Positions 11,824 to 24,671 of a stretch of DNA of 52,976 nt are shown here, one piece after another (the stretch's first letter is position 1; each line of letters opens with the position of its first letter). The stretch comes from a phage. The translations under genes were made by a program, and so were the position numbers. The stretch lies in sequence record PZ049337.1; one strand, given 5' to 3'. Under the pieces are notes generated by a model. It did not search any database, had not been told where the DNA came from, and saw only the letters and a program-made list of their open reading frames with translations.

Positions 11824-12140
11824 AATGGGACTCCGTAAATTGGTTGGTTAGTTGTCCACTCGCGAGTTGCGATTTGCATGGACTTGTTTGGGCCGTGGTA
11901 GAAGTATTTCTTGACTTCCTCAAGTGTGTATTTAGCACTGCTTTCGAGAATATCTTTGAAAGTGTGCTTCCAGAACCCATCTTTCTCCGAAATTCCTACG
12001 GTAAAGTCGTTGGTGCCGTTGTACCACCAACGTCCACCAACCAGGACGAAGTGGATTGTTTCTTCCCCATCTTCCCCACTTAGAACAGACGTTAGTACAT
12101 TTCTTAATGTCAAAACTTTAGCAGAATGCTTGCGAATCAT
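11820..12140 (-). CDS. hypothetical protein (106 aa) ending ...GVPF
   Basis: ATG at 12140 with GGAGAG Shine-Dalgarno; C-terminal VPF tip. Confidence 0.5.
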   Translation of the reverse strand: MIRKHSAKVLTLRNVLTSVLSGEDGEETIHFVLVGGRWWYNGTNDFTVGISEKDGFWKHTFKDILESSAKYTLEEVKKYFYHGPNKSMQIATREWTTNQPIYGVPF

Positions 12141-12783
12141 AGGAACTCTCCAATTTTCGATTCAGTGTTTGTGACTTCTCTCTTCTCATCTTTTGGCCTC
12201 ATGAAACAGGCCACAGGGTTGCGAAAATAGCCCTATTTTAGGACTATAGCCAACCGTTTGTGTCAATTCTGGATAACTGCATTGGTGAAGGGTTACTCTC
12301 GTTAGGGTGCGATACGCTAATCACATGAGTGTCGTCGCCTTGCGGCTCAGGCGTGTCACAAAGGCTTTGCAACCCTTCCCAATACATTCACCCAAATCCC
12401 AGCGTTGGCGTAGCTGGTGGCTTGGTTTTGTGCGGATTATGCCACTCTAAGCCCTGTTTGTCCGACTTCCTCGGAGCACCAGCGGCTTGTGGCACAAACC
12501 TATTTTCGAATGACTAACATAAGCATGAGGCACAACCCTCTAATTATTCAGCCCTAACAGCTTGCTTATTTAGTACCAATTCATCCCAATACATCGACCT
12601 ATAACAAGTGAATAGCGTTTCTGCGAAGAAGTATTCTGGCCCTTTGGCCTATGTTAAAAGATAAGTGTATTTGATGGAAACATTCCATCGAAAATAACTT
12701 TGTAGAATGAGTCGAACATTCTCACACGTCTAGCGGCCGCAACGGTCTACCGAGTTACAAAGTTATTATCTGATGTTGTTTCT

Positions 12784-12800
12784 TCAATTCCAACTAATGT
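12784..12800 (-). promoter_or_regulatory. copy of recurring 17-nt motif (minus strand ACATTAGTTGGAATTGA)
   Basis: In ORF-free region 12150-13010. Confidence 0.3.
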
Positions 12801-12864
12801 TTCAGAATTATTCCAATATTCCAAACAAAAAGAATAATAAGAATAAATTAAAATAAATGAAGAA

Positions 12865-12900
12865 AGTGCTTGACACCCATTTGGCGATAAGTGTATAATG
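12865..12900 (+). promoter_or_regulatory. sigma70-type promoter on the plus (antisense) strand
   Basis: TTGACA (12870-12875), 18-nt spacer ending TG, TATAAT (12894-12899): consensus -35, extended -10; points opposite to all genes. Confidence 0.4.
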
Positions 12901-12924
12901 CATTTCTTCCCTAAGAGGTCAGAA

Positions 12925-12941
12925 TCAAATCCCACTAATGC
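12925..12941 (-). promoter_or_regulatory. copy of recurring motif, degenerate (minus strand GCATTAGTGGGATTTGA)
   Basis: Adjacent to hairpin 12949-12995. Confidence 0.25.
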
Positions 12942-13011
12942 TTCAGACGAAGTGCCGAAGGCCAATGCGAGTACAAAACCCGCTTGGCACTTCGAAGAAA
13001 CCCGCCTGGAA

Positions 13012-13248
13012 CTATAGTGCTTTCCAATCTGAATCAAACAGTTTCTTTGGTCTTGAATAAATTATCGAATTAATTCCCAAGAAAGTATGATTTCCATACT
13101 TCTTAACTTCCTGGTAAGCAAAACCATCTACCCAATCTCCGGAGTGGGTTTTAATCTTTGTAGCAAACAGGATTCGATAGTAGTGGCCGCGTGGCTGGTG
13201 GAAGAGTATATCTTCTGGCTTGATTGAGCTAATATTTAAATCACGCAT
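13012..13248 (-). CDS. hypothetical protein (78 aa)
   Basis: Minus-strand ORF, tightly packed early-gene block. Confidence 0.4.
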   Translation of the reverse strand: MRDLNISSIKPEDILFHQPRGHYYRILFATKIKTHSGDWVDGFAYQEVKKYGNHTFLGINSIIYSRPKKLFDSDWKAL

Positions 13249-13789
13249 TTAAGAACAATACTCCTTCGGAGAAGATGTAGTCGCTTCCATAATCTTTTGC
13301 AACTGCATCCCAATCAATGTATGGACGAAGATGGTCTGGAACTTCTATCCCATCATAGTTTTTGAAGTAGTCTGCAATTGAGTCGCAACGAGTGATGAAC
13401 ATGTCATTCAAATCATTCACAGTGAAAATATCAATCTCACCACTACGGAATGCAGCAAGAATTACAAACAAATCAGTGTCATTTAAAAGTTCATTGAATT
13501 TGTCATACTTGCGTAGGCTGAACAGGCCATCAACAAAGCAAACTTCCGTAACATCCTCATCTCTTGATTCGAGAATGTCGTAAGTCCCTGTTTCTGGGTA
13601 CTCGATACCATATTCTTCGTGTAAATATTCTGACATGTTGAAGTCATAGAGCCGCCACGCCAGACCATCAATCCAAGCATCTTCATGCTCGGAATTGTTT
13701 TCGCCTGTGTAGAAACGAACCAATAAGGTTTCATCTCTACGCCAGGACTTAAGCTGTGATACTGCTTGAGTAATGTTATCGTTTTGCAT
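13241..13789 (-). CDS. ArdA-like antirestriction protein (DNA mimic)
   Basis: 182 aa, strongly acidic; C-terminal PYIDWDAVAKDYGSDYIFSEGVLF resembles my recollection of the ArdA C-terminal motif (YIDYQAYGRDL...GIFEI). Confidence 0.45.
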   Translation of the reverse strand: MQNDNITQAVSQLKSWRRDETLLVRFYTGENNSEHEDAWIDGLAWRLYDFNMSEYLHEEYGIEYPETGTYDILESRDEDVTEVCFVDGLFSLRKYDKFNELLNDTDLFVILAAFRSGEIDIFTVNDLNDMFITRCDSIADYFKNYDGIEVPDHLRPYIDWDAVAKDYGSDYIFSEGVLFLNA

Positions 13790-20312: not shown

Positions 20313-20703
20313 TCAAAATCGGGGCGGGCTACGGGATTAGTTTCGCGGCTTTGCTCCGACTCTTCTCTTCTTTCGAATTCTGATTGAAAGAAAGAAGCAT
20401 GTCCAAAAGTTCCAATATTACCAAAGTTATCTCCCGGCTTGTGGGTGGGCCTTTATAATAGGAGATGTGGCTCAATTGTCGCTAATAGACATGCTATAGG
20501 TGAAGAACAGTTTCGAATAATATTCCTACTTCACACATGGTTGCTGGAACTTTGTCCGGCCAAAGACAGGGAGTTCAATGATTGCCACATCATTACAACA
20601 CTGTATGTTTAGTTGACATGCTGAAATGTTTCTAGAATGATTTCAACATGACATGCGGAAACCCACGAACAACGTGAGTAATACTTCTCCGTATTCTGTT
20701 ACT

Positions 20704-22982: not shown

Positions 22983-23049
22983 TTGTAAGTCTCCAAGATT
23001 GTGTATGATTTAACTGAAACGGATTATAATAGCGTAGCCATTACACAAT

Positions 23050-23066
23050 TCACTTCCAACTAATAT
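23050..23066 (-). promoter_or_regulatory. copy of recurring 17-nt motif (minus strand ATATTAGTTGGAAGTGA)
   Basis: 68 nt upstream of the RNA polymerase ATG; a TATAAT-like hexamer lies about 25 nt downstream of it. Confidence 0.35.
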
Positions 23067-23170
23067 CACAAACCTGTGCCATTGTTAGCACAGCACGGAG
23101 ACTTTGACCTTGACTCATAAGCGAAGCGCCTAACTTGGTGTTATCATTAAGCCGATAGGCTGTAGAAAAA

Positions 23171-23229
23171 GTTGGGGTAGGGACCGTATTTTAAGTCCGA
23201 TAGGACGTTGGGCTTCCCCTCCCCGCGAC
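23171..23229 (-). terminator. possible intrinsic terminator after the late/nrdB transcription unit
   Basis: Minus strand GGGGAGGGG...CCCTACCCC stem (one mismatch, one G-U) followed by AACTTTTTC; loop is long, so uncertain. Confidence 0.3.
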
Positions 23230-23242
23230 CTCAAAAATAAAA

Positions 23243-23470
23243 ATTAATATTGCCACAATTCGAGTCTCATTAATATTGAAACAATTTGAGTCTCATTAAT
23301 TTTGTAGCAATATTAAAATAAAAAAAAATTATAAAAAAAAAATTATTTCATAGTCAGACAACTGTTCGAAAAAATTTCGGCGAGATACAGCTGACCGACC
23401 ATGTACCATTTGGTTTTGAACTTTACGCATTCCTAATATTACTCTTAATATTGTAGCAATATTGGGAATA
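23243..23470. repeat. AT-rich repeat region (24-nt direct repeat, A-tracts, TGTAGCAATATT boxes)
   Basis: CACAATTCGAGTCTCATTAATATT (23254-23277) and AACAATTTGAGTCTCATTAATTTT (23280-23303); poly-A runs 23318-23345; TGTAGCAATATT at 23298 and 23452, related to the 20040-20312 array. Confidence 0.5.
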
Positions 23471-23552
23471 AATAAATATTTAATTTACTTGTTTTATTCT
23501 AGCTCAAAGAGAAACGACGCTAACGCATCGAATCTCTTCTCACATATAATCG

Positions 23553-24671
23553 TTAAAGCTCAAATCCGCCCAGAGCATTGGTGTCAACTTCGGAGTCAAT
23601 CTGCCCGACAAGGTACGAACTAATCTCCGTTTCTTGTGGAGCAACCTGTACAGCATCCGAGTTCAGCCATGCGTTAATCCAAGGAATCGGGTTAGTTGCA
23701 CCTTTGAATGGGGCATCTAATCCAACTGCTTGCATACGAATATTCGTAATATATTCCACATATCCGCACAGAATTTGCTTGTTTAAGCCAATCATGGAGC
23801 CATCTTTGAACAAATAATCGGCCCAATCTTTCTCTTGTTGGGCAGCATCTTCGAACAATTTCTGGCATTCTTCACGACATTCTTGAGCAATTTCTCCCAT
23901 TTCTGGGTCATCTTTACCACTCGCAAGAATATTCAACATGTGCTGAGTTCCGGTCAAATGGAGTGCTTCATCTCGTGCAATCAGTCGAATAATCTTGGCA
24001 TTTCCTTCCATTAACTTGCGTTCAGCGAAGGCAAATGAGCAAGCAAAACTAACATAAAAGCGGATTGCTTCTAGTGCATTGATAGACATGAGGCATAAAT
24101 AGAGCTTCTTCTTCAACTCACGCAGACTAATTTCGTGACCAGCATGGTTCCCTTCTCCGAACAACTGCCATAATGCAGTGAGTTGTTGAAGTTCGTCATA
24201 ATACTGGGAGATGCCAATTGCTCGTGCTTTGATATGTTCGTTAGTTACGATTTCATCAAAGATAATGCTTGGGTCTGTAACGATGTTTCGAATAATGTGG
24301 GTGTAAGAACGTGAATGGATAGTCTCAGAGAAAGACCAAGTTTCAATCCAAGTTTCAAGCTCAGGAATGCTCACGATTGGAAGCAAAACTGTGTTAGGTC
24401 CACGTCCCTGAATGGAGTCCAGAAGGATTTGATAGCGCAAATTACTGGTGAAAATGTGCTGCTCATTTGGTGGGAGCTTCTGGTAATCAATACGGTCTTG
24501 TGAAACATCTACCTCCTCCGGTCGCCAGAAGAATGACAATTGTTTCTCAATCAACTTCTCGAATATGCCATACTTCTGTTGGTCATAGCGAGCAACGTTG
24601 ACGTTCTGACCAAAGAACATTGGTTCTAATAGTTGGTTATTCTTGGTTTGTGAAAAGGTAGTGTAAGACAT
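23553..24671 (-). CDS. nrdB: ribonucleotide reductase class Ia small subunit
   Basis: 372 aa; N-terminus [34 protein letters not shown]... closely resembles E. coli NrdB as I recall it; [17 protein letters not shown] (radical Tyr) and RDEALH iron ligands present. Confidence 0.9.

Follow-up and report, generated by a model that had tools for sequence, protein, structure and literature searches.

The DNA analyzed here (record PZ049337.1; 52,976 bases, hereafter the window) is the whole genome of a phiEcoM-GJ1-like phage of the genus Carltongylesvirus, subfamily Cleopatravirinae, family Chaseviridae, and the subject of this analysis is a host-type promoter that lies antisense to the genes of this phage in a short control region. 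Phages of the Carltongylesvirus type are contractile-tailed and have their own T7-like single-subunit RNA polymerase. Positions 12100-13300 of the window matched 47 phage records at 88-93% identity, among them phiEcoM-GJ1 (GJ1), ST32, Mangalitsa and several Yersinia phages. All annotated genes of the relatives and all long family-matched open reading frames (ORFs) of the window are on the minus strand, referred to here as the sense strand. Read in the sense direction, the control region runs from the stop codon (13012) of a 78-amino acid (aa) gene through a hairpin (12995-12948), a candidate phage-polymerase promoter (P4), the antisense promoter, an A/T-rich array (12866-12807) and a second copy of the phage-promoter motif (P5).

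A first-pass annotation of this DNA had described TTGACA, an 18-nucleotide (nt) spacer ending in TG and TATAAT on the plus strand, and the coordinates of the element (12870-12899) confirmed that description. Its further claim that the promoter opposes all genes also held, as the promoter is directed rightward, toward the 78-aa gene and an ArdA-like anti-restriction gene (Table 1). The spacers of sigma70 promoters range from 16 to 18 base pairs (bp), with 17 being optimal. In a genome scan the element was the sole match on either strand to all 12 positions of the sigma70 hexamers, and there was one match at 11 of 12; the number of 12/12 matches expected by chance from the base composition was 0.015 per spacer length. 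Transcription is predicted to start at about 12906. Neither the GenBank records of GJ1 and SA91KD nor the papers searched describe this antisense promoter.

Table 1. Positions in the window of the antisense promoter, the control region around it and the other genes and signals considered in the text.
Feature	Position	Strand	Remarks
-35 hexamer TTGACA	12870-12875	+	6/6 consensus
Promoter spacer, 18 nt	12876-12893	+	CCCATTTGGCGATAAGTG, 3' end TG; within 16-18 bp range
-10 hexamer TATAAT	12894-12899	+	6/6 consensus
Predicted antisense transcription start	12905-12907	+	~7 nt past -10, from sigma70 geometry
A/T-rich stretch, UP-element-like	12833-12869	+	directly 5' of -35
Spacer hairpin, 8 bp	12894-12873	-	ACACUUAU/AUGGGUGU, two G.U pairs, 6-nt loop; sense RNA only
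P4, candidate phage-polymerase promoter, 23 nt	12947-12925	-	sense strand TCTGAAGCATTAGTGGGATTTGA; repeat family D1
P5, second copy of the 23-nt motif	12806-12784	-	141 bp 3' of P4 in sense direction
Tandem TATTCCAA x2	12809-12824		repeat family D4
Imperfect hairpin with GCC-GAA-GGC core	12948-12995		3' of 78-aa stop codon
78-aa gene	13012-13248	-	phrog_2652; last gene before control region
ArdA-like anti-restriction gene	13241-13789	-	phrog_14321, E = 1e-53
Phage RNA polymerase gene	22982-21042	-	646 aa
Intrinsic terminator	20789-20774	-	GGGAGC-UUCG-GCUCCC then UUUUCUUGUU
Phage-promoter motif	20726-20709	-	3' of polymerase terminator

Conservation among close relatives was assessed in an alignment of 21 Carltongylesvirus copies of 12783-13060. 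Both hexamers were invariant (21/21), and the copies differed within the promoter only at a small number of spacer positions and by a single 1-nt deletion, with PYps23T, whose spacer is 17 nt long, being the single exception in spacing. The non-coding block 12783-12932 had a mean pairwise identity of 0.92-0.98 in these copies and was the best-conserved non-coding block of the local stretch. By comparison, pairwise identity in the adjacent coding DNA was 0.68-0.95 (mostly 0.80-0.90), and the identity of the 78-aa protein among Carltongylesviruses, at 60-92%, was well below that of the block. The greater identity of the block relative to the adjacent genes indicates that it is under stronger constraint than they are.

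Between genera, BLAST alignment was limited to 12788-12850, and the promoter was compared by reading the syntenic region directly. A perfect TTGACA-18-TATAAT was found at the same place and on the antisense strand, 3' of the ArdA-like and 78-aa genes, in Sabourvirus 4HA13, Faunusvirus Faunus, Aeromonas phage phiA050, Suwonvirus PP101 and the metagenome contig L186; an 11/12 version, with TGGACA (5/6) as its -35, was present in UViG_3300031418. The -10 TATAAT was invariant in all lineages compared, the genus Loessnervirus included. When six lineages were compared without gaps and fixed on the hexamers, 11 of the 12 hexamer positions were invariant versus 7 of the 113 others (Fisher p = 2e-10), and mean pairwise identity fell from 0.97 in the hexamers to 0.52 in the spacer and 0.36 in the flanks. 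The spacer was always 18 nt long in these six lineages, with 5 of its 18 positions invariant, including a mid-spacer TTT and the 3' TG. Retention of the hexamers and their spacing while spacer and flanks diverged is the pattern expected if a promoter for the host holoenzyme has been selected, and based on these comparisons the element is very probably a functional host promoter under selection.

Positions 12860-12868 (AAGAAAGTG) resemble the UP-element proximal subsite AAAAAARNR, and the A/T-rich stretch to which they belong may act as an UP element. A/T-rich DNA also lies 5' of the -35 in PP101, Faunus, phiA050 and 4HA13, where its sequence is not kept. A scan of viral contigs with the pattern TGTATAATG-N25-55-ACTAATG returned unspecific matches only, and a metagenome scan with the 18-mer TTATTCCAATATTCCAAA gave mostly chance matches and one informative contig, L186.

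Since no conserved ORF covers the promoter, coding cannot explain the conservation of its sequence. The control region, about 160 bp of conserved DNA, is filled with spurious small ORFs by automatic annotation. The minus-strand 31-aa ORF at 12808-12903 has an ATG in the window only, the relatives having AGG, and is frameshifted by 1-nt indels in relatives. A plus-strand ORF at 12938-13060 is interrupted in roughly half of the relatives, either by a frameshift or by a stop, and another, at 13392-13583, has lost its start codon or gained stops in several. The plus-strand ORF 13087-13227 (46 codons) is open in 20 of 21 copies. We rejected it as a gene because its codons are the exact complements of those of the 78-aa gene, with a His codon opposite its ATG or GTG start, and conservation of the local DNA is not unusual. 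It is probably a shadow ORF.

The antisense promoter is flanked by two copies of a 23-nt motif, P4 and P5, which are 'putative phage promoter 4' and '5' in the GJ1 record and are both annotated in SA91KD too. The core of this motif occurs eight times in the genome, each time on the sense strand, and five matches were found at ≤3 mismatches versus 0.09 expected, a distribution that fits a promoter for the phage polymerase. Inverted GAATAA copies (12833-12848) and the tandem TATTCCAA make up a repeat array between P5 and the -35, and TATTCC/GGAATA arrays occur likewise in 4HA13, Faunus and phiA050. Relative to the predicted antisense start, the near edge of P4 is at +20 in this genome, +25 in phiA050 and PP101 and +33 in 4HA13 and Faunus, and P4 therefore faces the host promoter at +20 to +33 in five lineages. 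A host open complex is usually assumed to span about -55 to +20, and in this genome it would extend as far as the edge of P4 that is transcribed first. Because the two are head-on, each transcript from P4 must cross the host promoter.

The GJ1 GenBank record annotates one host promoter, 5' of the phage RNA polymerase gene. The host promoter proposed at that location in the window is CTGACT-18-TATAAT (23357-23328), a 10/12 match, and most relatives have no host-promoter match of at least 10/12 in the equivalent of 22983-23560. The antisense promoter thus surpasses, in both strength and conservation, all sense-strand host promoters found 5' of the polymerase gene, and given the weakness of the latter in relatives it is the best-conserved host-type promoter of the family. 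The polymerase itself aligns to PHROG profile positions 154-816, and much of the T7-type N-terminal region seems to be absent. About 250 nt 3' of the polymerase gene, just ahead of the first phage-promoter motif, is an intrinsic terminator, and the placement of this terminator suggests that host polymerase reads little beyond the polymerase gene. The genes faced by the antisense promoter had been labeled early genes in the first-pass annotation, a label that needs qualifying: their block is ~10 kb from the polymerase gene, behind phage-promoter motifs and a strong terminator, which makes its transcription by phage polymerase more likely.

From the sequence, uniqueness, conservation and geometry of the element we infer that the promoter is active, and with that its start site and the length, timing and effect of its transcript. 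With both hexamers and the 18-nt spacing under selection, a plus-strand antisense RNA is the most likely product. In the mechanism we propose, host RNA polymerase would bind the antisense promoter once the DNA enters the cell, initiate at about 12906 and move rightward across P4 and then the hairpin 12948-12995. The transcript, which would be non-coding, would continue into the 78-aa gene and then the ArdA-like gene and, having no intrinsic plus-strand terminator, would probably end by Rho or by collision. Two effects are plausible: host polymerase may interfere head-on with phage polymerase that sets out from P4, and the antisense RNA may pair with the ArdA-like transcript at its 3' end. As P4 fires through the host promoter, phage polymerase should silence that promoter once it has accumulated, and the antisense promoter would then be an early, self-limiting signal. 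We give about even odds to the reading that a functional host promoter sends an antisense RNA head-on into P4 and the ArdA-like unit, and odds of even at best, or a little short of that, to this particular mode of action.

Several observations weigh against this reading, the first of which comes from Loessnervirus (Y2, Fifi44 and SSEM1), where both hexamers are kept but are 8 nt apart. Such a spacing means that phages can do without the strong promoter, or else that the hexamers serve a further purpose. Within those 8 nt the three phages differ among themselves, and the genus retains a weaker TTATTA-18-TATAAT (9/12). Secondly, the link of the promoter to the ArdA-like module, in itself a point in favor of the reading, is based on only two lineages that lack the module. 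Aeromonas phage pAh6-C, from the other subfamily, is without the ArdA-like gene, the 78-aa gene and any antisense match of at least 11/12, while UViG L041 is without the two genes and had no such promoter in the ~10 kb checked 3' of its polymerase gene. Thirdly, the feature of an extended -10 is not present (TGTATAAT): the TG abuts the -10, which places it outside the canonical register (TGnTATAAT), and the scanner scored it 'no'. In addition, a terminator scan found no plus-strand terminator-like site between ~12900 and 18000, RNAalifold on seven sequences across genera found no conserved plus-strand pairs, and a literature search found no transcript data for members of the Chaseviridae. Finally, P5 is 141 bp away from P4 and would not be blocked by a bound polymerase, so interference at P4 alone would leave the downstream genes on.

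As an observation on its own, the Loessnervirus spacing is 10 bp shorter than that of the other lineages, and the hexamers are ~150-200 nt 3' of the 78-aa gene homologue.

We also considered a more specific role for the face-to-face placement of the host promoter and P4 at 20-33 bp, in which the pair would act as a polymerase hand-over switch or as a site where host-made RNA primes replication. In the hand-over version, host polymerase would occupy the site and transcribe backwards at the moment of infection, restraining P4 as well as the end of the ArdA-like unit, and phage polymerase would later erase host polymerase by firing through the site. We regard this possibility as tentative, with perhaps one chance in four.

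A rival explanation is that the block is a replication origin in the style of the T7 primary origin, which comprises tandem phage promoters and then an A/T-rich region. In such an origin P4 and P5 would flank the A/T-rich stretch, the host promoter would provide a primer for synthesis running the other way or help to separate the strands for it, and the TATTCC/GGAATA repeats would bind an initiator. Consistent with this, promoter-like motifs (putative only) and an A/T-rich array are both present, with the array between the two motifs over 141 bp; no other non-coding DNA of the region is as well conserved as the block, which is partly kept between genera; and the repeat arrays recur in 4HA13, Faunus and phiA050. 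However, the A/T-rich stretch is 5' of the host promoter and not 3' of it, GC skew, though uninformative as to a site of initiation, has no switch here, and in PP101 the P5 motif and repeats are ~300 bp from the promoter. An essential origin should also persist, yet neither of the two lineages that lack the ArdA-like module was found to have the promoter, and the counterpart of the T7 origin position, just past the polymerase gene, is at ~20.6 kb. We therefore consider an origin unlikely.

It is similarly improbable that the promoter serves host polymerase purely as a binding site, whether as a roadblock or insulator formed by slow escape where the ArdA-like unit ends, or as a holoenzyme sink. 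The sink takes up the decoy idea of the first-pass annotation and would be present in hundreds of copies after replication, although a single site per genome would be a weak sink. A full consensus would be expected to favor tight binding, and the site is directly past the putative sense-strand terminator hairpin, with the footprint of about -55 to +20 reaching the downstream edge of P4 in this genome; in other genera, however, P4 is 5-13 bp farther off. Consensus promoters with A/T-rich upstream DNA are also usually highly productive, and we know of no phage factor that would hold polymerase at the site.

A third explanation is that the hexamers are kept for a role that does not involve polymerase, either as a sense RNA element (GCAUUAUACA, hairpin, UGUCAAG) in the leader of P4 transcripts or as protein half-sites. 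The sense-specific spacer hairpin between the hexamers supports this explanation. Its folding was significant relative to spacer shuffles (p ~0.01), the plus strand would have C/A mismatches in place of its G.U pairs, and the changes C12878A with A12889T (PYps23T), C12878T (Mangalitsa) and A12890G (seven copies) all preserve pairing. Spacer stems of 7-8 bp, with differing loops, are also found in 4HA13, Faunus, phiA050 and L186. Further support comes from the Loessnervirus hexamers, which at 8 nt apart are useless for sigma70, and from GCATTA being common to the element and the phage-promoter core GCATTAG. Against this, an unrelated element would have to match the sigma70 consensus at 12 of 12 positions with a fixed 18-nt spacing in six lineages, most of the hexamer bases are outside the hairpin, which takes in A12894 as the one base of the -10, and PP101 and UViG_3300031418 keep the promoter without the stem; in Loessnervirus the stretch is deleted. 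We judge a role without polymerase to have a low probability, of the order of one in ten. In most lineages the DNA appears to carry both an antisense promoter and a sense-strand hairpin in the leader of the P4 transcript. A dyad operator in the spacer was rejected, as the register of the dyad varies by genus, two genera have no such dyad, and the one in this genome can pair in sense RNA only.

The hairpin at 12948-12995 bears on a further explanation, that promoter and hairpin bound a small regulatory RNA of ~90 nt resembling lambda oop. The arms of this hairpin (12948-12956 and 12986-12994) are 9 nt long and 100% complementary, its 5' edge is ~42 nt past the predicted start, and it folds stably on the plus strand (-19.9 kcal/mol, z = -4.3) as well as on the minus strand (-23.8 kcal/mol). 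There is, however, no plus-strand U-tract after it, the next bases being GAAGAAACCC, and in most relatives the outer 5' arm has a 1-nt deletion and a substitution that shift its register to ~12955-12995, while in TH29 much of the hairpin sequence is replaced. An Rfam search matched no family and no tRNA or tmRNA was found. An RNA ending at 12995 would also stop 17 nt short of the stop codon of the 78-aa gene at 13012, and no plus-strand structure is shared between genera. Such a small RNA is very unlikely.

Since the hairpin lacks a plus-strand U-tract, changes shape and has no conserved plus-strand pairs, we assigned it to the sense strand, where it would form the 3' end or the terminator of the unit made up of the ArdA-like and 78-aa genes. 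In the SA91KD record it is listed as a rho-independent terminator of that strand. Its minus-strand tail (CACUUCGUCU here, CUUUAGUCU in GJ1) is a weak U-tract, and the terminator scan did not call the site. The one feature of this stretch that recurs across genera (PP101, Y2 and phiA050) is a small sense-strand G+C hairpin with a UUC loop just 5' of P4. Of the earlier proposals for this site, the stem proved to be real and stable but did not stand as the end of a small RNA; likewise, an antisense RNA is likely in view of the conservation, while the hairpin evidence goes against a compact RNA made of promoter plus hairpin.

A genome end or terminal repeat at the site was rejected, as the ~3-kb repeat is at the start of the record, at the polymerase gene, ~10 kb away. 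[quoted passage not shown] Two records have ends near the site: that of TH29 (MT446403.1) has the equivalent of ~12600-13320 at both ends, and the first base of the flopper record (MN850594.1) is the equivalent of 12789. These ends are probably choices of assembly or linearization.

Other observations were made in the genome. The product of the ArdA-like gene matched Pfam ArdA at 18.1 bits, under the cut-off of 27, and several GenBank records name this gene 'tail fiber protein', probably in error. In the minus-strand leader 3' of the motif at 20726-20709, positions 20540-20700 have three successive hairpins that are conserved across genera, with compensatory changes (AATGAT..ATCATT versus TACGTT..AACGTA; TTGTCC..GACAG versus TTGAGC..CTCAG). 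The hairpins are bounded by two TGACATGC repeats, and GJ1 has no annotated gene over ~1.1 kb here. This segment looks like a structured leader or non-coding RNA, and a scan of the whole window against Rfam at the gathering threshold gave no family for it. The TGACATGC repeats contain a plus-strand TTGACA-17-AATGAT (at 20613), and with its -10 not being conserved we rejected it as a sign of a general habit of setting antisense host promoters behind phage promoters. Finally, the ~640 bases 3' of P5 (12141-12780) have no convincing ORF and their content varies among relatives, with a 133-aa 'SbcC-like' ORF in GJ1 and, in others, insertions of 100-300 bp flanked by a repeated P5 motif. These features suggest that 12141-12780 is a hotspot that swaps promoter-flanked cassettes.

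Precedents for a host-type promoter running against the genes of a phage were considered. The T7 record annotates a leftward 'E. coli promoter A0' beside the phage-polymerase promoter phiOL. A0 resembles the promoter described here in being host-type and opposed to all genes, in a phage with a single-subunit RNA polymerase, and in having a phage promoter adjacent. Unlike it, A0 is weaker (TTGACT-17-TAGGCT), is ~220 bp from the left end, points at the terminus and is divergent from phiOL, whereas the promoter here has the full consensus, is ~10.5 kb inside the genome and is head-on to the phage-promoter motif. To our knowledge, neither of the two promoters has an established function.

Lambda Po/oop and P22 Psar/sar are host-type promoters that produce cis-antisense RNAs against the main operon. 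Like the promoter here, they are read by host polymerase against an operon and give a non-coding RNA complementary to a convergent transcript. The oop and sar RNAs differ in being short and having intrinsic terminators, while here there is no plus-strand terminator and no conserved structure, and the convergent partner is read by phage polymerase. In coliphage 186, pR and pL are face-to-face promoters 62 bp apart, the stronger of which silences the weaker in the lysogeny decision. The similarity is in two promoters set face to face, from which the polymerases run into each other or knock each other off the DNA. In 186, however, host polymerase acts at both promoters, while here, in a virulent phage, one of the two is a candidate promoter for a single-subunit polymerase and 20-33 bp separate them.

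Mapping by ONT-cappable-seq revealed non-coding antisense RNAs in LUZ100, a T7-like phage, and antisense RNAs were hypothesized to be regulatory in LUZ100, LIT1 and LUZ7 (PMC10134795). These phages share with ours antisense non-coding transcripts, predicted in our case, and polymerases of their own. The antisense RNA of LUZ100 is in the structural region, and no family-wide conservation of a promoter was reported for it. The promoter described here differs from all of these precedents in combining a full consensus with presence in several genera of the subfamily and in facing the other class of polymerase at 20-33 bp.

In the Chaseviridae a contractile-tail virion goes together with a T7-like polymerase, and according to the ICTV profile the promoters used by that polymerase are not yet identified. 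This analysis adds one host-type promoter with strong comparative support, fixed head-on to a candidate phage promoter. If the antisense promoter is active, these phages would use host polymerase beyond making their own polymerase, and the site, being small and easily mutated, would offer a means of studying interference between two unrelated polymerases on one template. If the hand-over or priming role were true, it would be a control principle undescribed for phages that carry their own RNA polymerase.

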